Shown: positions 5,493-62,765, counted from the first letter of the stretch. The stretch: DNA of 64,000 bases from Pseudomonadota bacterium (GCA_040386195.1 JAZKFV010000022.1:2974-66973); one strand, 5' to 3'. The notes: generated from the sequence alone by a model not told the origin. Numbers and translations: made by a program.

Positions 5493-8400
5493 TTAATATC
5501 TCCCAATTGATGATTGCCTAGTTCCGAGTGTTTGTATTAATCCATCAACGCTCATGCCAAAAGTCAGACAAAAATTTTCATCGAGTGGAATGCCAATCGG
5601 AATCATTAGTTCTTGACTAGTGGAGCCAACCACTGGCGCACCGCAGACAAATTTTTGAGTGCGGTTTCGTGATATTTCCTGAACATAATCGCGACCTTGC
5701 AATGAAGGAATATCATATTCGCGGCGTTTTTCACTATTAATTAAACCATATTTGCCATCGACAACAATATTTCCTTCGCGATCAATAATTGAAAAAACAG
5801 TAAATAATTTTGAATATTTTGGTTCAGCTAAATCGATTCTAATTCTTTGCTGCTGTTCTTCTATAGCCTTTTCAAAAACATCTATTCCTCTGCTTTTAAC
5901 AATCGATTTAGTGGCGCCACCAACGGATTGAACAATTGTTTTGGCGGCTGGTGAAAGTAAATTAGGAGCCAATTTTGGTTCCATTAAATAGAGATTAAGC
6001 ATTGAACCAAGTGCTTGTTGAAAATAAGACGCGGTAGCTTGAGTGCAAATACTTAGACTTCGTGGTTGTAATTGTGAAAAATCACCACGATGAAGCGTCT
6101 CTTCGCTGGCGTAACGTCGGACATAAGAATTCATCGCCGACACCATTTGTCTGCCGCTCACAGTTTCAGTTTCTAGTGAATGGGTGATTTCTTTTTTGAT
6201 TAAAATATTAGCCCTAATATTTTCAATAATTTCTTCGACAACTTTGCGCGCTTGGCTTTCGCTATAAAAAAGTTTTATGCTACCAAAACCAAAGTGACCA
6301 ATTTGACCCGATTTAAAACCATCTGGGCGTTTGTGAAAATTACTCTCAACATCACGAATATTTACTTCGCCATTAGATTTAACTATGCCACCGGCAATGC
6401 TAACCATACGAGATCCAGCCAATATGGGATATGATTCAACTGCGCCTGCTAAAATTCTGCTACCAAAAAATAATTGTTCTTTTTTATTTAAACCATCCAC
6501 CAACCAGCGTTTATAAAGTGGCGGTATAGAAAGTTGACATTCAATATCACGCCATGATTCTGGATCGCTGAGATTAGCTACGGTTATTTCGCCACGTGCA
6601 ATCCATTCTTGCCATATTTCTTTGAGTTGCGGATCAACTGGTTCACCCTTCTTAAATTCTTCAATGACATAATCCAGCGCGTTGGTCACTGGTGCAAAAG
6701 TTATTTTGCCGCGACCATTACCTTCATTAGAAAACATTGAAAATGGCCCCATGCTGGTGAACATTGAAGCGATATTTTCTTTCCCCTCAGGCAGGGCAAT
6801 GCTAACAATAAGCTTCATGCGATTGGTGCGTTCTTCCACGGCAGATTCTGGAAATAATGTGCTATCGAGCATTTCAATGCTAGACCAAGTAGAGTTGATA
6901 ACATATGACGCGGTAAGTTTTTCGCCGCTCTGCATTGTGACAGCAAAATTCTGATTTCTGGTGGTTTGATCATAATCAATTTTAGTAACTTCTTGTCCGG
7001 TTCTAACTTCAATCAAACCTTTTTGCTGATATGATTTTACTTGATCCAATAAATATTGGCTGAAATTTGGCCAGTTGAGTAATTTTTCTTGAGTGCGAAT
7101 TACAGCCGCCATTTTACTGACATCAACGACATCTTGATAATCCTCTAAATCAAGCACGCGGAAAAAATCATCAACTTCACCAAAAATTTTATTACTCGGA
7201 TCAAGCTCAACTAATCTTTTATATTCAGCCCTGATGCCTTCATAAATTTTTAGCAATTCATCGGCCGGCACTTGTGAATCTTTGGCGATGAAATATAAAC
7301 CACAATCAAGTTCAGGATCATCTTTGCTAACACTAATTACAAACTCCGCTTTTCTTTTTTCGTTGTTGCAATATTTTTTCAGAAAAGTAATTGAGCTTTG
7401 TAAATAAAGTTTGGCGGTTTCTAAATCACGATAATGATAACCATGACCAACTCTTGCTGGGGTGCAGCCGCTGGTTTGGGATAATAAATTTTCTCCTTGT
7501 TCAATTAGGGTAGATTTGATTCCCAATTCTGCTAATTTCAGCGCGGTCATAATGCCGGCAATGCCGCCGCCGCTAATTAAAACTGGCTTATGATTGGCAG
7601 AAGCTTGTAATTCAGTTGCTAATTGACCTTGTAATAAAGGTGCGCGAAATTTATGAGGATCAGATTTAAAAGCGATCAGGCGTTTTTTAATCGGAATAAT
7701 TTGTAAAGCATTTGCGGTTGGCACCAGAGATATTTTCGCTCCAGCACTTGGTGCAGAACCTTTATGTTTATTTAACTGATCACCTTCCGAAATACTATCT
7801 CCAAGTAAATGACCACCGGCTGGATCATTTTGTTGAGCAGAAAATAAAGTAATACTCGGATGTTCAACTGGGTCTTCAGCCCAAAGCCCGTTACTGCGTA
7901 AGGCTAAATGTTCTTTCTCAAAACGAGCATCAAACTGAGCTACAAATGGCATATCTTCATCTTGACCCACAGCCTTTTGCAAAATTTTCAGTAACTCCAA
8001 ACGACCAACAATTGGTTGCTCTGGAAGTGCTACTATCAAGGCTTCGTTGTGATTAGCGATTTCGCAAGTCCAACATTTATCATCTAACTTGAGAGGAAAA
8101 ACTCCTTGACCTTTAGTGACGCGAAAAGCTTTTACTCCACCTTCGCAAGGGATGATAAATACTTCACCACCACCAACAAAATTGCTTTTTTCTTCCACAC
8201 CATTTTTTGCTGCTGAACCAATACCAATATTTCCATAGGAAATTATATCTCGTAATGAAACAATCGGAGCTCTGGTTCCTAAATCTTTATCCGCCGCTGT
8301 TCCCCATTGATGAATTATTGAAGGTTCAACAGGATCGATGGGATTTTCTTGGATAAGAATCGGCAGTTTTGCTAGCGTGTCTTTACGAATAATATGTAAG

Positions 8401-8504
8401 TGTAAATAACCAGGAGTGCCATCAATAGTTGATATAGCATCTTCGCCTGTGGCCTTGCCACCATAGATTGCAATGACAGTATATTCGGCTGTAAGATTTG
8501 GCAT
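5493..8504 (-). CDS. 1003-aa multidomain FAD-dependent oxidoreductase (DAO-like) with unknown N-terminal domain and C-terminal Cache-like module
   Basis: Uninterrupted 1003-codon ORF. Dinucleotide fold KPVLISGGGIAGIMTALKLAELGIKSTLIEQG at about residues 306-337. The C-terminal RDYVQEISRNRTQKFVCGAPVVGSTSQELMIPIGIPLD aligns with the Cache segment of the adjacent kinase. No TM or signal peptide seen. Confidence 0.6.
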   Translation of the reverse strand: MPNLTAEYTVIAIYGGKATGEDAISTIDGTPGYLHLHIIRKDTLAKLPILIQENPIDPVEPSIIHQWGTAADKDLGTRAPIVSLRDIISYGNIGIGSAAKNGVEEKSNFVGGGEVFIIPCEGGVKAFRVTKGQGVFPLKLDDKCWTCEIANHNEALIVALPEQPIVGRLELLKILQKAVGQDEDMPFVAQFDARFEKEHLALRSNGLWAEDPVEHPSITLFSAQQNDPAGGHLLGDSISEGDQLNKHKGSAPSAGAKISLVPTANALQIIPIKKRLIAFKSDPHKFRAPLLQGQLATELQASANHKPVLISGGGIAGIMTALKLAELGIKSTLIEQGENLLSQTSGCTPARVGHGYHYRDLETAKLYLQSSITFLKKYCNNEKRKAEFVISVSKDDPELDCGLYFIAKDSQVPADELLKIYEGIRAEYKRLVELDPSNKIFGEVDDFFRVLDLEDYQDVVDVSKMAAVIRTQEKLLNWPNFSQYLLDQVKSYQQKGLIEVRTGQEVTKIDYDQTTRNQNFAVTMQSGEKLTASYVINSTWSSIEMLDSTLFPESAVEERTNRMKLIVSIALPEGKENIASMFTSMGPFSMFSNEGNGRGKITFAPVTNALDYVIEEFKKGEPVDPQLKEIWQEWIARGEITVANLSDPESWRDIECQLSIPPLYKRWLVDGLNKKEQLFFGSRILAGAVESYPILAGSRMVSIAGGIVKSNGEVNIRDVESNFHKRPDGFKSGQIGHFGFGSIKLFYSESQARKVVEEIIENIRANILIKKEITHSLETETVSGRQMVSAMNSYVRRYASEETLHRGDFSQLQPRSLSICTQATASYFQQALGSMLNLYLMEPKLAPNLLSPAAKTIVQSVGGATKSIVKSRGIDVFEKAIEEQQQRIRIDLAEPKYSKLFTVFSIIDREGNIVVDGKYGLINSEKRREYDIPSLQGRDYVQEISRNRTQKFVCGAPVVGSTSQELMIPIGIPLDENFCLTFGMSVDGLIQTLGTRQSSIGRY

Positions 8505-8635
8505 AAATACTTCTGATTTTATTAAATATAAACCATATTAAACTCTTGCGAGTCGATTTTATCCTATTTGTGCAATTATTAATTTCTACTCAATAAATCT
8601 TAAGCTTAGCTAGATACGTAACTCGGACAAAATAA

Positions 8636-8664
8636 TTGACAATTAAAAGCCGCAAATATAACCT
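8636..8664 (+). promoter_or_regulatory. putative sigma70-type promoter for tRNA-Ile
   Basis: Consensus TTGACA at 8636-8641. The -10 candidates are TATAAC (8657-8662, 15-nt spacer) or TAACCT (8659-8664, 17-nt spacer). A GC-rich CGCCGCTTCC stretch lies ahead of the tRNA 5' end at 8685. Confidence 0.35.
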
Positions 8665-8684
8665 ACGCCGCTTCCTCTTTGTGG

Positions 8685-8761
8685 GGGTCTGTAGCTCAGC
8701 TGGTTAGAGTGCGCGCCTGATAAGTGCGAGGTCGGTGGTTCGAGTCCACCCAGACCCACCA
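8685..8761 (+). tRNA. tRNA-Ile (anticodon GAT)
   Basis: Cloverleaf read by eye. Acceptor GGGTCTG/CAGACCC, D-arm GCTC..GAGT, anticodon stem CGCGC/GTGCG with loop CTGATAA, T-arm GGTGG TTCGAGT CCACC, encoded CCA. Confidence 0.95.
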
Positions 8762-8816
8762 TTACATTTCCATTTGAACATCCGTTCAAATTCTCAATTC
8801 CATAAAACTAAACTAT

Positions 8817-9809
8817 ATGAACAAGAAATATAATATTGTTGGTATAGGCAACGCTATCGTCGACAATATTTGTTTGGTCGAGGAAAAATTTCTGGCTGAA
8901 CATAATTTAACCAAAGGCGGAATGTTTCTCATTGACGAAACCAACGCTGCCAAGCTTTCCCATTTAAAACATCAAAAAATCAGCTCGGGCGGATCAGTGG
9001 CTAATTCAATTGCTACTTTGGCAATGCTTGAATCTAAAACTGCTTTGATTGGCAAAGTTGGTAAGGATAAATTTGGCGATATTTTTTTTGATGATCTGAA
9101 AAAAATTGGCTGTGAATTTTTCTGCAAACATAAAGAAAAATCCGGCAGCACCGCCCAATCATTCGTTCTAATCACTCCAGATGGCGAGCGCACAATGTGC
9201 ACTTATTTGGGACTTGCTTCTAAAATTGCTGATGAAATTGATGAAAATATTATTAAAGATGCCGAAGTTTTATATTTGGAAGGCTATTTGTGGGACGAGC
9301 CGGAAACCATCGCCGCCTTGCGCCAGGCCATTGAAATTGCTGTAGATAATGAAGTAAAAATTGCTTTTTCTTTATCCGACGCTTTTTGTGTTGAACGTCA
9401 CCAAAGCGAATTTTTAGAAATTGCTCAGCATTTAGATATTTTATTTGCTAATGAAACTGAAATGAGCGTTTTGGTGGGCAGTGATTTTGCTGCTAATAAT
9501 TATCAAAAAGTTAAAGAAGTAATCACTCACCGCCACCCTAAATTAGTGGTGGCAATGACAATGGGTGAAAAGGGAGCGATGATTTTTAGAAACGATAAAT
9601 CACATCACATTGCCACTCAAAAAGTTGAAAAAGTGATTGACACCACCGGCGCCGGCGATGCTTTTGCCGCTGGATTTTTATATGGAATTGACAATGGGCT
9701 CAGCCTGCAAGAAGCCGCAGCTTTGGGCAATTTATTAGCTGGCGGCGTGATTGTGCAAATTGGGGCGAGGTTGGAGAAGGAGAAATTATTGGAGTTGGTT
9801 GCAAGTTAA
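8817..9809 (+). CDS. PfkB-family carbohydrate kinase, adenosine kinase-like
   Basis: N-terminal VGIGNAIVD, SGGSVANSIATLA, and C-terminal DTTGAGDAFAAGFLYG (PfkB signature 2). Overall resemblance to alphaproteobacterial adenosine kinases. Confidence 0.8.
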   Translation: MNKKYNIVGIGNAIVDNICLVEEKFLAEHNLTKGGMFLIDETNAAKLSHLKHQKISSGGSVANSIATLAMLESKTALIGKVGKDKFGDIFFDDLKKIGCEFFCKHKEKSGSTAQSFVLITPDGERTMCTYLGLASKIADEIDENIIKDAEVLYLEGYLWDEPETIAALRQAIEIAVDNEVKIAFSLSDAFCVERHQSEFLEIAQHLDILFANETEMSVLVGSDFAANNYQKVKEVITHRHPKLVVAMTMGEKGAMIFRNDKSHHIATQKVEKVIDTTGAGDAFAAGFLYGIDNGLSLQEAAALGNLLAGGVIVQIGARLEKEKLLELVAS

Positions 9810-48163: not shown

Positions 48164-48492
48164 TAGGTAGTTTTTTTAGCCAATGGTTTGATAACAAAAC
48201 CATATCCCAAACTTTCTAAAATAGTTCTAATGGTATTGAATTTTGGATTGCCATTAGCAGATAGAGTTTTGTAAAGACTTTCTCTAGAAAGCCCAGTTTT
48301 TTTAGACAATTCACTAAAGCCACCTTTGGCGATGGCGAGTTGACGAAGAGATAAAAATAGAGTTTTTTCATCCTTATCTTGCTTAAACTCTTTTAGAGAA
48401 AAATCTAGAAATTCATCAGCAAATTTTGGATCTTCTTTAAAATGCTCAACAATTACCTCGTTAAAATTTCTGTGTTTAATATTCTTTTTCAT
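48163..48492 (-). CDS. higA: HigA-family antitoxin (addiction module antidote protein)
   Basis: KTGLSRESLYKTLSANGNPKFNTIRTILESLG matches the HigA-type HTH. Start set at MKKNIKHRNF (ATG 48492). 17-nt overlap with higB. Confidence 0.85.
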   Translation of the reverse strand: MKKNIKHRNFNEVIVEHFKEDPKFADEFLDFSLKEFKQDKDEKTLFLSLRQLAIAKGGFSELSKKTGLSRESLYKTLSANGNPKFNTIRTILESLGYGFVIKPLAKKTT

Positions 48493-48799
48493 TGTAATCC
48501 TCCCAATATTCTTGTGCTTTTTTAATGTCTTTTGTTTGAGTTTTTTTGTCGCCACCACAAAATAAAATTATGATTTGGTGTTGTTCAAAGCCAAAATAAA
48601 TTCTATAGCCACTACCAAAATCAAACCTTAATTCAAAAATTCCTTCACCTAAACTTTTATGATCGCCAAAATTTCCGGTCTCAATTATTTGGTTCAGCCT
48701 TTTAACAATTCGCTTTCTAAAGCTATTATCTATGGTTTTTAGCCAATCAAGGAAAGGCTCTTTACCGGTTGCGGTTTTATAAAGTACAATATCAATCAT
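48476..48799 (-). CDS. higB: HigB/RelE-family toxin (addiction module killer protein)
   Basis: GNFGDHKSLGEGIFELRFDFGSGYRIYF...ILFCGGDKKTQTKDIKKA is characteristic of the killer-protein family. Confidence 0.85.
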   Translation of the reverse strand: MIDIVLYKTATGKEPFLDWLKTIDNSFRKRIVKRLNQIIETGNFGDHKSLGEGIFELRFDFGSGYRIYFGFEQHQIIILFCGGDKKTQTKDIKKAQEYWEDYNEKEY

Positions 48800-48886
48800 T
48801 GGTTTGGGTTTTTGGGTTGTGGTGTTTTTGTATCCCGCAAGATACGAAAGTGGTTTTTTAAGTCAAGGGGGAATTTGCGAAGCTAA

Positions 48887-51805: not shown

Positions 51806-51898
51806 TTTGTTTGTGTATTTTCAAGGAGGATTTGGAAGGGTAAGATCATAGACAGACCTTGTTTAATTGCAAGTCTGGTGTTGCTGAGTTCTGAAGAG

Positions 51899-52453
51899 TT
51901 AATCTAAATTTTTAAGATATAAACCGGCAATCAAATTATTTTCTCCAATTTCACCAAGAAAACCAAAACCGAATTTCTGATGAAATAAAATTGATCTTTG
52001 ATTGTGAATTGGCTGATGAACAATGCGACACAACACATTTTTAAAACCTTTCAATTTTGCCTGAGTTAAAAATTCTGCGAGCAAAACCCCGCCAATGCCT
52101 TTAAATCCAGACTTGACCGCAATTTGACGATGATAAATAATTTGCTCAAAATCGGTAATTTTTTTCATTTGTAAACAAGACAAAACCCCATTTTGTAAAT
52201 TTTCGGGCAAATAAGTGAACCGCGATGCAATCAAATAACCAAGCACTTCACCATCTTTTTCTGCCACCAAAACCAAATGATTTTTTTCATCCAAAATCAA
52301 TTCCTCAATTTCCTTCTCACTAATATTACGCACCAAAAAGCCATTATTTTTCCGCTCAGAAAGAATCCGCGAATCATCAATATCAACCAAATTTTCCTGC
52401 AGAATTTTTCTGATTGAATTGATGTTTTTTAAAGTGGCAAAATGTGTTTTCAT
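51899..52453 (-). CDS. GNAT-family N-acetyltransferase
   Basis: Acetyl-CoA motif A region IAVKSGFKGIGGVLLAEFL. 184 aa. Lies 18 nt downstream of the aminomutase gene. Confidence 0.75.
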   Translation of the reverse strand: MKTHFATLKNINSIRKILQENLVDIDDSRILSERKNNGFLVRNISEKEIEELILDEKNHLVLVAEKDGEVLGYLIASRFTYLPENLQNGVLSCLQMKKITDFEQIIYHRQIAVKSGFKGIGGVLLAEFLTQAKLKGFKNVLCRIVHQPIHNQRSILFHQKFGFGFLGEIGENNLIAGLYLKNLD

Positions 52454-52471
52454 TTTTGTGTTGCGATTAAA

Positions 52472-54595
52472 TTAAGATCTTGAGCCATCTTTATTTTGTG
52501 TATCAAGACTAGTGAATTTATAACTTTGTCCGGCTTTAACCGGAATTTCACAAGTTGCTCGCAAATTTGGGCTTTTACTTGGTTTTATTCCCATTTTTCT
52601 TAACTCACTTTCTGCCATATCAATCAAATCTTTTTCATCCTCGGTTGCTTCGGGTAATTGTTCGGAAGATTCAACCTCACCAACACAAGTGCTGCAAGAT
52701 AATTGCTCATCACAAGCCGCTTCAATAAAACCTTTTTTTGATAAAATAGTTGCTAAAGTTGGTGATTTTTTGGAGTAAATTTCATCACTCAAATCAACCT
52801 CAATAATTTCTGAACCATTTCTGCTTACAACCTCAATTTCTAATTTGGTAGAGCAGGGTTTTTTTGGTGGTTTTGGCTTGAGTGGATCATCTGGAATTGT
52901 TGTTAGATTTTGCTGAACTTGTTCGGCTGCTAATTTTTTTAATTGTTTGACTAAGGATTGATCCTCGGCACCAATTTCTGCTAAAGTTTTTTTACCTTGT
53001 TCATCTACTGCCATCTCAATCACTTCATCAGTTAGCCAATAAAATTTTTGTCCTTCTGGGAGTTTGGAGGTGTCTACTATTATGAGAGTGTTATCTGGCT
53101 TTTTTGCTTGTATAAAACGACCTATTTTTAAAAACACCTTGCCATTACTAGCTTCAACAATTTCTATTTTTCCATACTCAGTTGACATCATTAAGCGACC
53201 GTGATCTTCCAATCCGGAAAGAGCGGATTTTGATTTTTCTATCAATTGAAACTGCCTTTCAATGGTATTAAATCCGCGGAAATGCTTATTTCCAACGATT
53301 TCTCGACAGGCGTAGATATTGTGCATTTGAATACCAAGATTGCTGCTGTAATACATTAACAACTGCATTACCTCAGGTGAGTCATTGATTCCGGCAATAA
53401 TGGGGAGCTGATTGTAATGCCAAACCCAATCTCTTCTTTTATTAATTTCTTTAAATACAGGCTTTAAATCTTCTCTGACTTTATATTTTAATTTTGTATC
53501 ATAAACATACTCTCCATTCTTATCAATTCTAGGCTCTAGTAACTCAAAGGGGTGTACATAATGTCCGATTATATCAACTTTAACATCAGGATAGTTTTTG
53601 TGAAATAAATCCATCATTTCCCAAAACTCTTCGTCGAATCTTTGTGGGTTGAATACTAAATCTTTAGTTCCAAATCTAATTTTTTCAATACCGGCTTCTG
53701 CCATTAGAACTAAATATCTTGCAATAGTAGCATTAGGTAAGGTCATAGGATCGCCGCCAGAAAATAACATTTCTCTAATATGAGCTAATGGCTCTCTGGT
53801 TTTTTTATCTATCCATAAACCTGACTCTTTATCCCACTCTCCAGAGTTTTTGACTTCTTCATCAATCAGGCTGTTAAAAGTTTTGATGTAAGCAGCGATG
53901 ACTGGCATATCAGCTTTTTCTTTTCCTGAGCTACCATTAAATAAATCGAGGCGATAGCAATATCTGCAATGAGATGAACAATTAATCGATACAAACGCTA
54001 AGAGCATTCCATATTTATGTATCAATCCAGGCAAGGGTGAATAACGATTTTGGTTGGAAGGATCCACTTCACCGCTTAAATCATCAATTTCTCTAGGACT
54101 TGGCATTACCACTTTTAAAATAGGGTTGGCTTTTTTAGCACCTTTAGGAATTTTTAAAGCGTGATTTAAGTAAGATTCAGAAACTTTGACTCTCATTCTC
54201 GATTGCACCTCTTCAGAGCCATCTAGAAGTTCTGATAGTTCTGCATCGTCATAATAAGATTGGTTGGACTGTTGTAATGCCTGAACAACTTCACTAACTC
54301 CGATTAAACCTTCACCAGCTTTTCCGCCCCGAGAATATCTTTTGTTGAGATTGTTATTTACGTAGCCTAAAAAACCTTGACCCTGCCTAGATATTTCAAA
54401 AATGTGTCTTGGCGTATCGGCTCTTAATTTTGCTCTTAGTTCTTCAATTCGAGATTTTTTTGCGGCATCGGCAATAATATCAATGTGAAGCGGACGACCA
54501 TCTACACGACTAGAGAATGTTCGAAAGGAAGATTGATATGTGGGTTGGATTGTTCTTGTGGCAGAGAAAGTGGCTTGTGTAAGAAAGCGTTTCAT
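52472..54595 (-). CDS. KamA-family radical SAM 2,3-aminomutase fused to a C-terminal adrenodoxin-type [2Fe-2S] ferredoxin
   Basis: DPSNQNRYSPLPGLIHKYG...SINCSSHCRYCYR (CxxxCxxC at C206/C210/C213, nt 53957-53980), FSGGDP. C-terminal ACDEQLSCSTC (C628/C634/C637) plus RATCEI (C682). Confidence 0.8.
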   Translation of the reverse strand: MKRFLTQATFSATRTIQPTYQSSFRTFSSRVDGRPLHIDIIADAAKKSRIEELRAKLRADTPRHIFEISRQGQGFLGYVNNNLNKRYSRGGKAGEGLIGVSEVVQALQQSNQSYYDDAELSELLDGSEEVQSRMRVKVSESYLNHALKIPKGAKKANPILKVVMPSPREIDDLSGEVDPSNQNRYSPLPGLIHKYGMLLAFVSINCSSHCRYCYRLDLFNGSSGKEKADMPVIAAYIKTFNSLIDEEVKNSGEWDKESGLWIDKKTREPLAHIREMLFSGGDPMTLPNATIARYLVLMAEAGIEKIRFGTKDLVFNPQRFDEEFWEMMDLFHKNYPDVKVDIIGHYVHPFELLEPRIDKNGEYVYDTKLKYKVREDLKPVFKEINKRRDWVWHYNQLPIIAGINDSPEVMQLLMYYSSNLGIQMHNIYACREIVGNKHFRGFNTIERQFQLIEKSKSALSGLEDHGRLMMSTEYGKIEIVEASNGKVFLKIGRFIQAKKPDNTLIIVDTSKLPEGQKFYWLTDEVIEMAVDEQGKKTLAEIGAEDQSLVKQLKKLAAEQVQQNLTTIPDDPLKPKPPKKPCSTKLEIEVVSRNGSEIIEVDLSDEIYSKKSPTLATILSKKGFIEAACDEQLSCSTCVGEVESSEQLPEATEDEKDLIDMAESELRKMGIKPSKSPNLRATCEIPVKAGQSYKFTSLDTQNKDGSRS

Positions 54596-54680
54596 CTGGA
54601 AATAGAAAATAAATAAAAGTTAGATTAGTTTTAAATATGATGAGTGATTCAATTCAAGACAACAATATCTATCAAGTCAA

Positions 54681-55637
54681 TCAATAATCAAACAAATAGT
54701 CCATATTATCTTGAGCGTGCAATAGTTTTTCTGTGGTTAATAATTTTATAAATTCTTCTGGCAACCCAAAAAATTTTTTGCCTTTTTTAAACCAAATTCC
54801 GTACTTAATTTCTGGAAAATAATCAATCAGCATCCTTGCTTGCAAATCTTTTTCATCTTCTCCTTCTAGGCAAATGCTGGAAACAATGGCAATTCCGATA
54901 TTGGCTTTAACGAACTTTTTTAAAATTTCATAATTTGCCATTTCAAACTCTATTTTAGTTTTGATTTTATTAACTTTAGCAATCTCATCAAAGTTTGGAA
55001 TGGTTGTGAAGCGGCGATCAAGGCGTATAAGTTTGTATTTTGCAATGTCAGACAAGATTAAATTTTTCTTTTTTGCTAAAGGATGATCTTTTCTAGTCAA
55101 TAAAATTGGCTGATAACAAACAATTGGTAAAAAATCTAACTCGTCAGGAACTTCATCATCGCCCGCTGAATATATTGCAAAATCAATCTCGTTATTTTTT
55201 AGTCTTTTAATTGCTTCGTCTTTGGGAATATTTCTAATTTCAAATTCAACTTCAGGATTTGTGGTTTCAAACTTATGAATATATTTGGGTAGAATGTAGC
55301 AAATGCTGACATTGTTGGCGGCAATGTTGATTGTTTTTAATTTTTCGTGACGCAAAAATTTCGCAAAATCACTAAACATCTCATTAACCTCCTGCACCGA
55401 AGCTGCTGCCCTTGCATAAAATATTTTTCCTTCTTTGGTTAGGCTGATTTTGCTATTTTCTCGTTTTAAAAGTTTAACTCCCAAATCGCGTTCCAGCGAT
55501 TGAATTTGTAGGCTCACTGCGCCTTGGCTTAGGTTCATTTGTTTGGCGGCTTTGGAAATGCTGCCGTTGGAAATTGCGGCGCAGAAGCCTTTTAATTGTT
55601 GAAAGCGGTTGTTTTTATAGTGGAATTGGCTGGTCAT
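54681..55637 (-). CDS. LysR-family transcriptional regulator
   Basis: N-terminal HTH FQQLKGFCAAISNGSISKAAKQMNLSQGAVSLQIQSLERDLGVKLL and a LysR substrate-binding C-terminus. Confidence 0.88.
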   Translation of the reverse strand: MTSQFHYKNNRFQQLKGFCAAISNGSISKAAKQMNLSQGAVSLQIQSLERDLGVKLLKRENSKISLTKEGKIFYARAAASVQEVNEMFSDFAKFLRHEKLKTINIAANNVSICYILPKYIHKFETTNPEVEFEIRNIPKDEAIKRLKNNEIDFAIYSAGDDEVPDELDFLPIVCYQPILLTRKDHPLAKKKNLILSDIAKYKLIRLDRRFTTIPNFDEIAKVNKIKTKIEFEMANYEILKKFVKANIGIAIVSSICLEGEDEKDLQARMLIDYFPEIKYGIWFKKGKKFFGLPEEFIKLLTTEKLLHAQDNMDYLFDY

Positions 55638-55741
55638 TGGTGTGGGTATTAGTTTTGTTGATGGGGGTGATAGGCGCTCTTACTATAACTTGGTTGCTTG
55701 GCGATAATTATTGAATATGTTTTTGAAAAGATAAAAGCAAT

Positions 55742-55762
55742 CTTTTGACAATTTTTCAAAAG
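55742..55762. promoter_or_regulatory. 7-bp perfect inverted repeat containing a T-N11-A motif (candidate LysR operator)
   Basis: cttttga (55742-55748) N7 tcaaaag (55756-55762). T55746-N11-A58. A TTGACA hexamer is embedded at 55745-55750. Lies in the lysR / small-ORF divergent spacer. Confidence 0.3.
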
Positions 55763-55795
55763 GAAATTGTGCTTTTCTGAAACAAAATAAAAATT

Positions 55796-56083
55796 ATGAA
55801 AATGAAAATAGCCAATGATGCAAAACAGAATCACCACTTATCAAACCCACACCACAGCCAAATCCAAAATCGCCACATAACAAACCCGGACTATCCAAGC
55901 CAATGCTATCAACAGACTGTGGCGGCGATTAGTAATTTTAATAATAGTTTAATTATTTTGGTGGAATCAGTTAAGCAGTTGAGTGAGGAAGAATCGGTTA
56001 ATTTATTTTCTAGTTTGGAGAGTTTAAAAAATAGCGTTAGTTTTGTTAATAAGTATTTTGCTGAGGTGGTGTTAAAAGATTAA
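55796..56083 (+). CDS. hypothetical small protein (95 aa)
   Basis: ORF only. His/Gln-rich N-terminus. Divergent from lysR. No family recognised. Confidence 0.35.
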   Translation: MKMKIANDAKQNHHLSNPHHSQIQNRHITNPDYPSQCYQQTVAAISNFNNSLIILVESVKQLSEEESVNLFSSLESLKNSVSFVNKYFAEVVLKD

Positions 56084-56120
56084 GCCTAAATGGAATCTAA
56101 TACCGAACTATAAGCATTAT

Positions 56121-57359: not shown

Positions 57360-57540
57360 TTTTTAATGATGATTTAATTGAATTGAATATGATTTTTAAA
57401 ATCTTCGCATTCAAAAATTAACAATCAATCAACTTATCAAAAACTTGCCGAAAATGGTTGGCAAAATAATTATTTTTTGGTTGATTTTAAATATGGATTA
57501 ATAATTCTGATGCGCATTTTTTAAATTAACTCAAAAAATT

Positions 57541-58455
57541 ATGACAGATAATATTGATGACGAAGATTTGGTTTTGGATATTTTTAGTGGAATTTTAGAT
57601 GAAGTTGAGTCTGACTTTGAAAATGATGATTTAAAAGAATTTCTTCTAAAACTAAAAGCTGAATCAACTTTAAAAAACTCGGTTGATAAAGATGGTAATA
57701 GTTTATTTCATCATTTGGTATGTTTTAAGCCTAGCTTTTATCTGGCATTAATAGAGCTAGGATTTGATCAAAATCTAAAAAATAAATATGGAGCTTCTCC
57801 CGAAAATTTATACACAATTTTATCTTTTGAAGATTTGGCTAAGGAATATTTGCTTGTATATTCACAGCCAGATTCAACTCGCAGCTCAAATATCTTAAAA
57901 AAAATAGAGAATTTTCAAATTAAGCCCGAGCTTTTTCTGATTGAAGATGTTGGAGGTGATAATATAGGAGAATTTGTTAAAGAATTTATTGAGACTCATC
58001 AAGACAAAATTCCAATCGCAGCAATTGTTCAAATTACAAAAGTTTTAAATGCTAAATCAAATCAGCCTGAATATTTTTGTCCCGATAATTTAAAAGCTAA
58101 AAGCAGTTTTGTTGTGGAAATTTATAACAAAATGGCTGCGTTAAGAGATGCTGGGCGAGATTTGGAAGATTTTAAGCAATGGAAAGATTGTTTCAAATTT
58201 ATTCCTGAAATGGGTGTTGATGAAAAAGGTCAGTTTGTTGATATTAACGATGAACAAAAAGAGTTTAATGAGAAGGAAATGGGTTTGGTAATTAAAATAT
58301 TTGATAATCATAATGAGGCGTTTAACTATACCAAAGAGCCGCTAGCTAAAAGACAAAAAGTTGGTAATGGTTCGCCAAATTCAGCTTTAAAAACACAATT
58401 AGGCAATTGCGTCTTGCAATTACAGGAACAACAGCATCAAAATTCAGTTGGTTAA
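57541..58455 (+). CDS. 304-aa hypothetical protein with one ankyrin-like repeat
   Basis: DKDGNSLFHHLVCFKPSFYLALIELGFDQNLKNKYGASP resembles a single ANK unit. Otherwise unknown. Confidence 0.5.
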   Translation: MTDNIDDEDLVLDIFSGILDEVESDFENDDLKEFLLKLKAESTLKNSVDKDGNSLFHHLVCFKPSFYLALIELGFDQNLKNKYGASPENLYTILSFEDLAKEYLLVYSQPDSTRSSNILKKIENFQIKPELFLIEDVGGDNIGEFVKEFIETHQDKIPIAAIVQITKVLNAKSNQPEYFCPDNLKAKSSFVVEIYNKMAALRDAGRDLEDFKQWKDCFKFIPEMGVDEKGQFVDINDEQKEFNEKEMGLVIKIFDNHNEAFNYTKEPLAKRQKVGNGSPNSALKTQLGNCVLQLQEQQHQNSVG

Positions 58456-58562
58456 TACGCAATTTTGATAAAAGAGTTTATGATCGGTTTTTAAGGGTTT
58501 ATTAATTGATAATTTGCTTTGATACTTTATATTCTAGTCATTATCAATCCGACATTAAAAAT

Positions 58563-59419: not shown

Positions 59420-59437
59420 AAAAAATTTATTTTTCTT

Positions 59438-60148
59438 ATGCTAATCAATGCAGCTTTTATAATTATTGGTGATGAAGTTTTATCGGGGCGCACTGCTGAT
59501 AAAAATCTTAACTTCTTGGCGCAAGAATTAACTGCGATGGGCATTAATTTAAAAGAAGTTCGAGTTGTTCCAGACGATGAGGTTGAAATCATTGCAGCGG
59601 TTAATGCTTTGCGTAAAAAATTTAATTATGTTTTCACCTCCGGAGGAATTGGGCCAACTCACGATGACATAACTTCAGCTGCAATTGCTAAAGCTTTTAA
59701 CGATGATTTGATCAAAAACAAAGAAGCTGAGCAGATTTTGATTGATTATTATGGTCAAGAAAATGTCAATGAGGCGAGGTTAAAAATGGCTTTTGTGCCT
59801 AGCCGCGCTACACTTCTTGATAATCCGGTTAGTTCAGCTCCTGGATTTATAATTGAAAATGTGATTGTGATGGCGGGAGTTCCAAAAATTATGCAAGCGA
59901 TGTTTTTTGCTGCTGCTAAAAATTTAGTTGGTGGTGATAAAATTATTTCCAAAGAAATCAAAATTAATTTAACTGAAAGTATAATTGCTAAAGATTTAAC
60001 CGATTTACAAAAAGAATTTAGCGGCGTGTCGATGGGCAGCTATCCGTTTGATGGCGGAACTGCTTTGGTTTTTAGAAGTATTGATGCGCAATTATTGGAA
60101 AAAGCAGTCGAAAAAATGACGCAAATAATTAATAATAAAACTAATTAA
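59438..60148 (+). CDS. CinA-like molybdopterin-binding (MoCF_BD) domain protein
   Basis: AAFIIIGDEVLSGRTADKN, FTSGGIGPTHDDIT. Start set at MLINAAF, because the track start 59390 lies inside the tRNA. Confidence 0.8.
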   Translation: MLINAAFIIIGDEVLSGRTADKNLNFLAQELTAMGINLKEVRVVPDDEVEIIAAVNALRKKFNYVFTSGGIGPTHDDITSAAIAKAFNDDLIKNKEAEQILIDYYGQENVNEARLKMAFVPSRATLLDNPVSSAPGFIIENVIVMAGVPKIMQAMFFAAAKNLVGGDKIISKEIKINLTESIIAKDLTDLQKEFSGVSMGSYPFDGGTALVFRSIDAQLLEKAVEKMTQIINNKTN

Positions 60149-60928
60149 ATGTCAGATTTAACTCCGCAACAAAAAGAATATAACGATTTTATCAAATCGC
60201 TGGTTGCAGATGGAAGTTATTTTAAAGATGCTCGAGATTGGTATATTTTTCGTTATGTGCAGCCAATTTGCGAAAGAACAATATTATTTTTTATCGTCAT
60301 TATCACTGGTTTTGTTACTTATATTTTAGCCGGCACCATTCTCAACTCTTTGCCAATTAAACAAGAAGTGGCGGTGATTATCAGACCCAAAGACCAATCC
60401 CGTTATTTTCCGGTGATTAAATCTCTTAAAGATTCAGTTGAGATTAAAAATATTGATCAAGCAGTTAGTAAATATTTATTAGCTCAATATGTTAAAAAAA
60501 GAGAAGGTTATGATCTGAGAAAAACCAATATCGAAGCTTTGAATAATCAGATGAATTACATCAAAAATAATTCATCAATACAGGAATATCGAGACTTTCA
60601 AAGCTTTTTAAGTAAAAACAATCCCGATAGTCCGATTATTTATTTTGGTCGTGATTTTCAAAGAATTGTTGATATTGATTCTGTTGAATTTCCGCCTAAA
60701 GAAACTGACAATCTGATTGATACAGCAAGATATTTTGTTGCCAATGACCTACCAAATAATGCCAATGTTAAATATACAATTACTACCAAAGTGAACTCGG
60801 TTGTAACTTCAACTCAGCGTTATTTGGTAAAAATTAATTTTAAATTTTCCGGAGTGAACTCAAAAAAAAGCAATAATTCTGGGTTAGATTTCACCGTTAT
60901 TTCCTACAAAATCTATAAAATAAAATGA
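60149..60928 (+). CDS. virB8: type IV secretion system protein VirB8
   Basis: Cytoplasmic N-terminus, single TM (ILFFIVIITGFVTYILAG), and a periplasmic domain with KYLLAQYVKKREGYD (compare VirB8 KYWLSQYV..RE.YD) and a terminal FTVISYKIY. Confidence 0.75.
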   Translation: MSDLTPQQKEYNDFIKSLVADGSYFKDARDWYIFRYVQPICERTILFFIVIITGFVTYILAGTILNSLPIKQEVAVIIRPKDQSRYFPVIKSLKDSVEIKNIDQAVSKYLLAQYVKKREGYDLRKTNIEALNNQMNYIKNNSSIQEYRDFQSFLSKNNPDSPIIYFGRDFQRIVDIDSVEFPPKETDNLIDTARYFVANDLPNNANVKYTITTKVNSVVTSTQRYLVKINFKFSGVNSKKSNNSGLDFTVISYKIYKIK

Positions 60929-61848
60929 AAAAATTAGTTCTCATCGTGCTATTATTTTTTGTTGCCAATGCTCAAGTTAACGCTTCGCAACTGCCAAGAT
61001 ATTTGGGTAAGGAGAAGAAATTTCGAATGTTTATTTATAATCCTTACGATGTTTATCGTTATGTTGGCAATTATAATTATCACGGCTTCATTGAGTTTCA
61101 GGGCAATGCAATAAAACAATCTGCGCCTTCTAACAACGGCACTCTAACTGACGCCAGCGTTCCAGTTGCTACTGCTGCTGAAGAAATCACCGAAGTTGCA
61201 ATTGGTAATTCTGACGCTTGGTTGTGGAAAATTTCTGATAGTAAAAATCGCCTTTATTTAAAGCCGGTTGGCGATAATGCTAACACTAATATGACTGTAA
61301 AAACCAGCTTGGGCAGAGTTTATAATTTTGAACTAATCGCCAGAACTCCAACTGGTCCAGATGATGAGAATTTAATTTTTGCGGTTAAATTTGTGTATCC
61401 TGACGATACCGATAAAAACATTTTAGAATTTCCTAAAACCCAACCGTCAGATGAGCCGGATATGAGAAATTTGAGTATTTATAATTTTAACTATGAATAT
61501 ACCGGCGAGCCAAGAATTGCGCCGTTAAAAGTTTTCGATAATGGTGAATTCACCTATTTTCAATTTGCTAGAAAAAGTGCCGAATTGCCGGCAATTTTTG
61601 CGGTTGATTCTGAAGGTTTTGAATCATTATTAAACTTCAGAATTGCTGGAGATTATGTGGTTGCCGAAAGAGTTGGTTCACAATTCACTTTAAGAAATGG
61701 CAGTGAAATTGTTTGTGTTTATAACAATAATTTATTTAAAAGCGGCAAAATAATTTCTAACGCCAAAGTCAATTCCGGCAATCCAATGATGCCGAATTAT
61801 AATGGCGCGCCGCCTTCTTCGCCAATGTCTCCAAATAAACCCAATTAA
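60925..61848 (+). CDS. virB9: type IV secretion system protein VirB9
   Basis: Signal peptide MKKLVLIVLLFFVANAQVNAS. NFNYEYTGEPRIAPLKVFDNGEFTYFQF matches the VirB9/TrbG C-terminal motif. 4-nt overlap with virB8. Confidence 0.75.
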   Translation: MKKLVLIVLLFFVANAQVNASQLPRYLGKEKKFRMFIYNPYDVYRYVGNYNYHGFIEFQGNAIKQSAPSNNGTLTDASVPVATAAEEITEVAIGNSDAWLWKISDSKNRLYLKPVGDNANTNMTVKTSLGRVYNFELIARTPTGPDDENLIFAVKFVYPDDTDKNILEFPKTQPSDEPDMRNLSIYNFNYEYTGEPRIAPLKVFDNGEFTYFQFARKSAELPAIFAVDSEGFESLLNFRIAGDYVVAERVGSQFTLRNGSEIVCVYNNNLFKSGKIISNAKVNSGNPMMPNYNGAPPSSPMSPNKPN

Positions 61849-62195
61849 TGATTATTAAAATAAAAAATTTAAAAATAGACACAATTTTGGGTGTTTATGA
61901 ATGGGAAAATAATTACCCGAGAACTTTGTTATTCAATGTTGAAATTCAAAGCAATTGCGATCAATCTATGATTAGCGACAATATCAAAGACACTATTGAT
62001 TATGATCATGTTACCAATCAAATCCGTGATTATGTTGTCAATAATCGCTGCCATTTGATTGAAAAAATGGTTGGTGAAATTTTAGATTTAATTATGCAAG
62101 ATCAAAGAATTTCCAAATGCACTTTGGAAGTTGATAAGTTAAAAGTTTATGATTTTGTTGATTCTTTCTCAGTTACTCAAACAAGGATTAGATAA
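61848..62195 (+). CDS. folB: dihydroneopterin aldolase
   Basis: IKNLKIDTILGVYEWENNYPRTLLFNVEI, DTIDYDHV, LIEKMV. 115 aa. Confidence 0.8.
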   Translation: MIIKIKNLKIDTILGVYEWENNYPRTLLFNVEIQSNCDQSMISDNIKDTIDYDHVTNQIRDYVVNNRCHLIEKMVGEILDLIMQDQRISKCTLEVDKLKVYDFVDSFSVTQTRIR

Positions 62196-62198
62196 TTT

Positions 62199-62765
62199 AT
62201 GATTCTGCTCATCGATAATTACGACAGCTTCACCTACAACCTTTACCACTATATAATTCAAGCCGGTGCGGATGATGTTTTGGTGAAAAGAAATGACCAA
62301 ATTTCAATTGCCGAAATTCAAACCTTAAATCCTAAAGCAATCGTTTTATCTCCGGGGCCTTGCTCACCAGATGAGGCGGGAATTTGTCTGCAAGTAATTG
62401 AGCAGCTAAAAGAGCAATATCCAATTTTAGGAGTTTGTCTTGGTCATCAAGCCATTGGTCAAGCCTTTGGTGGCAAGGTTATAAAAACTTATCCAATGCA
62501 TGGCAAAGTTAGTGAAATTCATCATTCCGGCAAAAGTATTTTTAAAAATATTCCATCCCCTTTCAAAGCCACGCGCTATCACTCACTAACCATTGAAAAA
62601 GAAACTTTTCCACAAGATTTAGAAATCACTGCTCACACCGAAGATGGAATTATTATGGGCGTTGCTCACAAAAAATATAACATTCACGGAGTGCAATTTC
62701 ACCCCGAATCCATTGCCTCGGAGCATGGTCATCAATTGATTAAAAATTTTATTGATTTGATATGA
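62199..62765 (+). CDS. pabA: glutamine amidotransferase of anthranilate/aminodeoxychorismate synthase
   Basis: ILLIDNYDSFTYNL, GVCLGHQ (catalytic Cys), GVQFHPES. Confidence 0.9.
   Translation: MILLIDNYDSFTYNLYHYIIQAGADDVLVKRNDQISIAEIQTLNPKAIVLSPGPCSPDEAGICLQVIEQLKEQYPILGVCLGHQAIGQAFGGKVIKTYPMHGKVSEIHHSGKSIFKNIPSPFKATRYHSLTIEKETFPQDLEITAHTEDGIIMGVAHKKYNIHGVQFHPESIASEHGHQLIKNFIDLI

Follow-up and report, generated by a model that had tools for sequence, protein, structure and literature searches.

A minus-strand cassette in a 64-kb window (the whole 64,000-nucleotide stretch of DNA analyzed, JAZKFV010000022.1:2974-66973 of the Pseudomonadota assembly GCA_040386195.1) is predicted to encode an accessory operon that joins an amino acid 2,3-aminomutase carrying its own ferredoxin to a dedicated N-acetyltransferase. 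Its three co-directional genes specify a LysR-type transcriptional regulator (318 aa; 54681..55637), a KamA-like pyridoxal phosphate (PLP)/radical S-adenosylmethionine (SAM) aminomutase fused to a [2Fe-2S] ferredoxin (707 aa; 52472..54595), and a GNAT acetyltransferase (184 aa; 51899..52453), with spacers of 85 and 18 nt. Our open reading frame (ORF) calls agree with those of an earlier note made from this DNA alone, which had likened the locus to the AblA/AblB pair for N-epsilon-acetyl-beta-lysine. We favor a LysR-controlled, self-reducing aminomutase and its acetyltransferase acting on a non-lysine, probably acidic substrate to yield an N-acetyl-beta-amino acid. Drawn from sequence comparison, this reading has in our judgment about an even chance of being correct.

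Family and equivalog membership of the aminomutase was judged against curated NCBIfam cutoffs. The enzyme matched the KamA family model TIGR00238 (E 7.5e-22), with a score of 77.7 bits that lies below the family threshold of 199.2. Scores were also under the cutoffs of the models for AblA/KamA (TIGR03820; 65.5 vs 525.4 bits), EpmB (TIGR03821; 69.7 vs 369.3), the alphaproteobacterial AblA_like_2 (TIGR03822; 54.4 vs 396.25), glutamate 2,3-aminomutase (TIGR04368; 71.1 vs 650), and arginine 2,3-aminomutase (64 vs 600). By sequence, the sole strong match in the PDB was Clostridium subterminale lysine 2,3-aminomutase (LAM; 2a5h, hereafter CsLAM), at E 1e-13 with the single sequence and 2e-17 with the family profile. 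An AlphaFold (AF2) model (predicted local distance difference test, pLDDT, 88; predicted template modeling score 0.88) likewise had 2a5h as its sole strong PDB match in Foldseek (E 3e-16; TM 0.61 on the target).

The catalytic residues could be followed across these alignments. All motifs quoted in the earlier note are present: SPLPGLIHKYG at residues 186-196, NCSSHCRYC at 205-213, and FSGGDP at 278-283. The radical-SAM cluster motif C206-x3-C210-x2-C213 (53957..53980, minus strand) aligns with CsLAM C125/C129/C132, and R215 (53951..53953) aligns with the carboxylate-binding Arg134. These four residues are invariant across 67 sequences. The SGGDP motif coincides with the SAM-binding GGD motif of LAM. 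The invariant K476 (53168..53170), at the end of the MSTEYGK motif (53168..53188), occupies the same column as the PLP lysine of Escherichia coli EpmB and of P0101, our reference resembling glutamate 2,3-aminomutase (GxGK/PSK), a lysine we take to be Lys337 in CsLAM. Because the cluster cysteines, carboxylate arginine, GGD motif, and PLP lysine all align, the enzyme retains the complete catalytic machinery of a PLP/radical-SAM 2,3-aminomutase. The window enzyme also retains every residue that is invariant across 29 full-length fused sequences (alignment A1). At the LAM zinc site, Cys268 is replaced by Ser406, and the protein lacks a LAM_C domain.

The C-terminal 125 residues (aa 583-707; 52475..52849, minus strand) are assigned as a ferredoxin of the adrenodoxin/ISC type. 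The ligand set C628-x5-C634-x2-C637-x44-C682 is invariant in 29 of the 29 sequences of A1. The family profile matches Yah1, FDX2, E. coli ferredoxin, and putidaredoxin at E-values from 9e-8 (Yah1) to 1e-3, the single-sequence Pfam Fer2 match is under its cutoff, and the domain is confidently folded in the AF2 model. The ferredoxin domain suggested in the earlier note is therefore real. Its estimate of about 180 extra N-terminal and 250 extra C-terminal residues needs revision: measured against Clostridium LAM, the additions come to about 80 and 150, and the larger figures fit better when the 342-aa EpmB is the reference. At the other end of the protein, residues 1-46 (54458..54595, minus strand) have a pLDDT below 50. 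The first approximately 40 residues are disordered, net basic, rich in Ser and Thr, and nearly devoid of Asp and Glu in the window enzyme and across the fused homologues, including those of related loci L001, L004, L008-L012, L088, and L090. Such a composition resembles a mitochondrial presequence. One would not expect it in a cytoplasmic enzyme of bacteria, and the mitochondrial type of the ferredoxin and the rotifer copy described below make it noteworthy.

Searches for relatives place the enzyme in a small and distinct clade. A word-indexed search returned two groups: some 55 homologues with the fusion (45-61% identity) and some 40 without it, 450-530 aa long (33-40% identity). When 1.84 billion representatives were searched exhaustively with a profile, only 61 sequences reached E<=1e-30. 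Profile scores fell into separate ranges: approximately 750-1060 bits for fused enzymes, 200-430 for unfused relatives, and 90-145 for canonical KamA-type proteins. The unfused members also scored under the TIGR00238 cutoff (94-116 bits). In a quick neighbor-joining tree, the family was separate from EpmB and glutamate 2,3-aminomutase, and the fused enzymes formed one clade. The window enzyme thus represents a rare clade outside the known KamA-family classes. The earlier note had conceded that placement among EpmB enzymes, as the sole epmB of the genome, would undo its proposal; both the model scores and the tree set the aminomutase apart from that group.

Clustering of the neighbors at 80 genome loci connected the family to beta-amino acid metabolism. 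Unfused members adjoin a class I/II aminotransferase in 24 loci and a class III aminotransferase in 12. In several Margulisbacteria and other metagenome-assembled genomes (MAGs), the gene order is mutase, class III aminotransferase, beta-keto acid-cleaving enzyme (BKACE), and acetoacetate-CoA ligase. Among fused enzymes, the basal L014 and L013 adjoin BKACE (whose locus also contains a class III aminotransferase) and acetoacetate-CoA ligase. These neighbors tie the clade to an alpha-to-beta amino acid conversion that would feed beta-transamination and beta-keto acid cleavage. With glutamate as substrate, such a route would run from beta-glutamate through 3-oxoglutarate to acetoacetate and malonyl-CoA, and a 2-aminoadipate route would end in acetoacetate and succinyl-CoA. 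The other recurrent neighbors of the unfused relatives (thymidylate kinase, enolase, PurH, CysS, and others) are housekeeping genes and gave no clue to the substrate. In L004, L005, L006, L010, and L015, serine-biosynthesis genes flank the lysR-aminomutase pair, with a SerA-like dehydrogenase upstream and a bona fide SerC directly downstream, followed by Fic, a HAD phosphatase, and a large flavin adenine dinucleotide/Fe-S oxidase. This setting is either a coincidence or a hint of transamination coupled to glutamate and 2-oxoglutarate.

Properties of the predicted substrate pocket argue that lysine is an unlikely substrate. In LAM, two aspartates reportedly hold the epsilon-ammonium of lysine; we take these to be Asp293 and Asp330, a numbering consistent with our alignments. 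In the Asp293 column, the window enzyme has Arg431 (53303..53305, minus strand; 'YACREI' against 'YQCDLS' of 2a5h in the HMMER alignment), part of a conserved 'CRE' motif and itself at least 90% conserved in the family. The same column holds Asp in E. coli EpmB and Lys in P0101. The Asp330 column holds Ser471 in the window family (53183..53185; an assignment that crosses a 2-residue gap), Glu in EpmB, and Asn in P0101. The two-aspartate feature of lysine 2,3-aminomutases is thus absent, with both epsilon-amine-binding residues replaced, subject to that gap for Ser471. The replacement of Asp by Arg and Ser reverses charge in the same manner as the Lys/Asn pair that sets glutamate apart from lysine 2,3-aminomutases, analogous to that pair rather than identical, which suggests that the substrate probably has an acidic or polar side chain. 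As the reaction, our best guess is L-glutamate to beta-glutamate. P0101 itself scores 627 bits on the glutamate 2,3-aminomutase model, for which the cutoff is 650.

The acetyltransferase (minus strand; Pfam Acetyltransf_1, E 1.2e-7) belongs to a very rare family that mostly accompanies this aminomutase. A direct search with the GNAT yielded six relatives among 5.8 billion proteins. In five of the seven informative loci (the window, L088/L089, L090, L099, and L100), the gene lies directly downstream of the aminomutase, either 6-20 nt behind it or overlapping it, and the L088/L089 order is again LysR, mutase, GNAT. As so few relatives exist and most sit behind this one enzyme, the pairing of the two genes exceeds chance. 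It is real, but limited to the subclade closest to the enzyme of the window. By the same evidence the GNAT is not a housekeeping enzyme, and the RimI-type identity that the earlier note had named as a way to fail finds no place here. Two provisional conclusions were discarded. An absence of co-conservation (0 GNAT homologues in 86 loci) was a sampling artifact of species-representative genomes, overturned by the direct search. The idea that the window is the only locus with both an intact ferredoxin and the GNAT was ruled out by L099 and L100, where the upstream fragments end in a ferredoxin C-terminus including the fourth Cys ligand. A metagenome scan with the GNAT alignment gave two loci.

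By curated models, the GNAT is not a member of the PAT/ArsN1/YncA group; its best NCBIfam match was ArsN1a (30.7 bits vs a cutoff of 170). No AblB-type model matched at E<=0.1 (the matches were ArsN1a, ArsN1b, and PAT), although the presence of an AblB model in the NCBIfam release is unconfirmed. As the earlier note had observed, the protein is shorter than AblB/YodP, by about 90 residues (184 vs ~275 aa). Its structural model (pLDDT 88) has Foldseek neighbors in the BAR/PAT/ArsN/YncA group. BAR, PAT, and ArsN are classical detoxifiers that acetylate glutamate analogues. The modeled PAT/ArsN-like character would fit a glutamate-like substrate, although it is not proof of one.

Some GNAT relatives occur in other settings. 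A contig of JGI 3300059473 (P0106) has an L088-like holC/NUDIX/thrC/lysR neighborhood in which LysR is followed directly by the GNAT and then ccmF. Loss of the ferredoxin cysteines in L088-L090 and of the whole aminomutase in the P0106 contig suggests stepwise decay in this lineage. L091 has a convergent LysR near its GNAT. The most distant relative (L092 3758..5606; 34% identity) lies directly 3' of a 425-aa major facilitator superfamily transporter resembling metabolite:H+ symporters.

The LysR protein of the window (minus strand) matches Pfam HTH_1 (E 1.8e-18) and LysR_substrate (E 2.7e-25), both above cutoffs. Synteny, which the earlier note had left to be checked, extends to this gene as well as to the GNAT: in all close fused loci, an orthologue (58-79% identity) immediately precedes the enzyme gene in the same orientation, and it is more conserved than the enzyme among these loci. 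The gap between lysR and the aminomutase is 2 nt in L004, L010, and L015 and 19 nt in L008, and the genes overlap by 4 nt (ATGA) in L012. Because these gaps are so small or absent, the two genes are predicted to be co-transcribed and translationally coupled in those five relatives. Within the window, a promoter scan gave nothing above shuffled expectation and the spacers held no terminator, including the 85-nt spacer between lysR and the aminomutase (54596..54680, minus strand).

Divergent from lysR, a 95-aa ORF (55796..56083, plus strand) is 42% identical (E 2e-12) to an ORF at the same position in L088/L089 and has no Pfam match. In L008, L009, and L012, the same position is occupied by a histidine kinase. 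A HisKA-like motif, 'DLRTPLNTI', is carried by the L004 counterpart, where Asp substitutes for the phospho-His. Possibly the 95-aa ORF is the remnant of a histidine kinase retained as a small protein.

Comparison with near relatives of the host indicated that the cassette is optional. The three closest genomes (L094, L096, and L097), whose UvrA is 97%, 90%, and 87% identical at the amino acid level, keep the order NifU, DUF2497 protein, UvrA, with nothing between the DUF2497 gene and uvrA. The cassette lies exactly there, 93 nt from uvrA. By blastn, window positions 51881..56118 (4,238 bp, comprising the 95-aa ORF, lysR, aminomutase-ferredoxin, and GNAT) correspond to 248 bp in L094, and this strain-variable 4.24-kb cassette is absent from all three genomes. 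Its junctions are clean; neither flanking repeats nor mobility genes were found at the borders. As it is missing from its three closest genomes, the cassette is an accessory trait. Its neighborhood also varies by lineage, with thrC in L088, serA/serC in L004, and uvrA/polyprenyl synthase in L001, and it appears to behave as a small transferable module. The nearest named relatives of UvrA are from Rickettsiaceae and Rickettsiales MAGs (86-87% identity), which makes Rickettsiales-type a reasonable label for the intracellular-type alphaproteobacterial host proposed in the earlier note.

A copy of the fused enzyme was also found in an animal genome. On a 199-kb contig of the bdelloid rotifer Rotaria sp. 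Silwood1 (L098; CAJNYZ010000169.1; 30% GC), an intact intronless ORF at 6662..8839 encodes a 725-aa aminomutase-ferredoxin, 48% identical to the window enzyme over residues 15-702. Within 16.9 kb of AT-rich DNA that is poor in genes, there is no other long ORF, and the neighbor is an intron-bearing RTC gene. No LysR or GNAT gene was found beside it on the contig. In the gene model as deposited, the 3' exon looks like a spurious annotation. A further homologue is present in Rotaria sordida (P0045). The fused enzyme was probably transferred horizontally into bdelloid rotifer genomes, and the rotifer copy suggests that it may be able to function alone.

The chemistry we propose would begin with the substrate alpha-amine forming an aldimine with PLP. 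A ferredoxin reductase encoded elsewhere would reduce the ferredoxin domain, which would pass one electron to the [4Fe-4S] cluster. Cleavage of SAM would then give a 5'-deoxyadenosyl radical that abstracts a hydrogen from C3, and the amine would migrate from C2 to C3 of an acidic or polar amino acid, glutamate being the best guess. Acetylation of the beta-amino acid product by the GNAT would pull the reversible mutase reaction forward and yield an N-acetyl-beta-amino acid. LysR would probably sense either the substrate or the product.

Several observations weigh against this proposal. In other fused subclades, the place behind the enzyme gene is taken not by the GNAT but by SerC, a second LysR, or unrelated genes. 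The 64-kb window contains no gene for ferredoxin reductase or for partner enzymes (aminotransferase, BKACE, or acetoacetate-CoA ligase), nor for elongation factor P (EF-P). The dependence of the mutase on its ferredoxin is not absolute, because two GNAT-linked sister enzymes lack the ferredoxin cysteines: the truncated sisters P0023 and P0027 have lost these residues along with R467, a loss seen in L088-L090. Nor is that of the GNAT on the mutase, because two loci (the P0106 contig and L091) have the GNAT with no aminomutase. For the GNAT, Foldseek E-values of 1e-11 to 1e-8 separate subfamilies poorly, as the folds are alike, and the ArsN1a match is far under its cutoff. The substrate call depends on a pair of aligned positions, of which S471 is placed by bridging a gap, and each known class is represented by a single reference sequence. 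No labeled set for a 'specificity code' resulted, as none of the 20 canonical KamA-type matches tested reached any equivalog cutoff.

Among the alternatives, we consider most seriously, as an unlikely but sizable minority possibility, a catabolic or assimilatory mutase that interconverts alpha- and beta-amino acids for an unlinked beta-transaminase and beta-keto acid cleavage. The GNAT would then be a separate member of the LysR regulon, for example one that detoxifies a glutamate-analogue toxin, and would not act on the product of the mutase. Aminotransferase, BKACE, and acetoacetate-CoA ligase neighbors across the family, including its basal fused members, are in agreement with this model, as are the classical detoxifying role of PAT-family enzymes and the persistence of the GNAT with LysR where the mutase is gone. 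The window, however, has none of these three partner genes, and the spacing of 6-20 nt or overlap in five loci suggests co-translation of mutase and GNAT in a shared pathway. A KamA-fold enzyme with other chemistry (no 2,3-amino shift), or a functionless gene decaying in this lineage, is improbable. It would account for the score under the KamA-family cutoff, the Ser406 substitution and missing LAM_C domain, the loss of R467 and the ferredoxin cysteines from P0023 and P0027, and the disappearance of the gene from one related genome. The window copy is nevertheless an intact 707-aa ORF that keeps the PLP lysine, SAM-cluster cysteines, GGD motif, carboxylate arginine, and full ferredoxin ligand set, together with all residues invariant in the 29 fused sequences. 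To our knowledge, every characterized KamA-family member is a 2,3-aminomutase.

Both lysine-based models fare worse. The AblA/AblB- or KamA/YodP-like conversion of lysine to beta-lysine and N-epsilon-acetyl-beta-lysine, as a speculative osmolyte or host-directed metabolite, is the reading that follows from the earlier note. Its gene logic stands, given the co-conserved LysR/mutase/GNAT unit with its aminomutase-then-GNAT pairing, and the only strong match of solved structure is a lysine 2,3-aminomutase. Its product finds no support: the enzyme scores 65 bits against the AblA cutoff of 525, Arg and Ser replace both aspartates, and the short PAT/ArsN-like GNAT had no AblB-type match at E<=0.1. 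We therefore regard lysine chemistry of this kind as highly improbable. Poorer still, to the point of being nearly negligible, is an EpmB-type enzyme making (R)-beta-lysine for EF-P modification. Common membership of the KamA superfamily speaks for it, and the only window match of the E. coli EpmB query was the aminomutase gene (21% identity, E 3e-9). These points are outweighed by the model scores (70 vs 369 bits for EpmB; 54 vs 396 for AblA_like_2), the Asp of EpmB where this family has Arg, the separation in the tree, the lack of efp within the window, and the absence of the cassette from three closest genomes, which would be unlike a translation-factor modification system.

The proposed aminomutase-acetyltransferase unit can be compared with characterized systems. 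It shares with LAM (KamA/AblA) and AblB/YodP the fold, CxxxCxxC motif, PLP lysine, carboxylate arginine, GGD motif, and mutase-then-GNAT logic. It differs from LAM in sequence (~19-23% identity), in having Arg431/Ser471 for Asp293/Asp330, in lacking the zinc-site Cys and LAM_C, and in its extra N-terminal segment and fused ferredoxin, and from AblB in its 184-aa PAT/ArsN-like GNAT. Compared with glutamate 2,3-aminomutase it has an analogous but not identical basic plus neutral polar residue pair (Lys/Asn in P0101, Arg/Ser here) and the same predicted product class, a beta-amino dicarboxylate. The window enzyme falls in a separate clade, found in Rickettsiales-like alphaproteobacteria and on a rotifer contig, whereas the known glutamate enzymes, from anaerobes and methanogens, lack a ferredoxin domain. 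EpmB (YjeK), which acts in EF-P beta-lysylation, has the same PLP/radical-SAM core in 342 aa, lacks the extensions, and has epmA/efp as its partners; the window cassette has no nearby efp and is dispensable among close relatives. The GNAT has its best NCBIfam match and top Foldseek neighbors among the BAR/PAT/ArsN1/YncA N-acetyltransferases for phosphinothricin, arsinothricin, and methionine sulfoximine, from which it differs in identity (17-22%) and in its unique context behind an aminomutase.

The common view of radical-SAM aminomutases is that they are oxygen-sensitive, belong to anaerobes, and depend on separate flavodoxin or ferredoxin partners. The hosts of this clade, Rickettsiales-like and other alphaproteobacteria, are expected to be aerobic, and fusion to a ferredoxin suggests a natural means of keeping the cluster reduced in oxygen-exposed cells. 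A literature search turned up no account of this clade, nor of an aminomutase fused to a ferredoxin. The nearest architectural analogy is eukaryotic TYW1, a radical-SAM enzyme that has its own electron-transfer domain, fused as a flavodoxin-like flavin mononucleotide domain, and acts on tRNA (PMC8941971); the window enzyme instead carries an adrenodoxin-type [2Fe-2S] domain on an amino acid mutase. Glutamate 2,3-aminomutase is known from Ruzicka and Frey 2007 and Tunckanat et al. 2022, as cited in bioRxiv 10.1101/2025.11.21.689712. According to that preprint, oxygen-tolerant 2,3-aminomutases are reported for lysine only, not glutamate, and an oxygen-compatible glutamate enzyme is said to be lacking for a proposed beta-glutamate CO2-fixation cycle.

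Should glutamate prove to be the substrate, the window enzyme would be the oxygen-compatible glutamate 2,3-aminomutase sought for that cycle. A dedicated and extremely rare GNAT points in addition to an undescribed N-acetyl-beta-amino acid. The full conjecture is that the cassette makes a new metabolite such as N-acetyl-beta-glutamate in aerobic cells, by way of the first known ferredoxin-carrying 2,3-aminomutase, oxygen-compatible, of glutamate type, and self-sufficient enough for single-gene transfer to bdelloid rotifers; we hold this to be speculative and, taken whole, rather doubtful. Being optional in near-identical host-associated genomes and present as a rotifer copy, the system may offer a tractable small transferable metabolic module in symbionts.

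Other strain-variable sites lie close to the cassette. A second insertion relative to L094 spans window positions 57438..58498 and contains a 304-aa ORF (57541..58455, plus strand) with no Pfam match. It lies between the NifU-like and DUF2497 genes and is absent from the relative with 97% UvrA identity. Between uvrA and tsaE, positions 48164..48874 hold a Gp49 (HigB-like)/HI1420-type toxin-antitoxin pair, where L094 has a DUF4116 gene. Genes for the type IV secretion proteins VirB8 and CagX/VirB9 are located a few kilobases away from the cassette site in L094 (1109..2817), L096 (2861..4572), and L097 (3255..4936), a region syntenic with approximately 59436..62758 of the window. Their presence is consistent with a Rickettsiales-type host-associated lifestyle.

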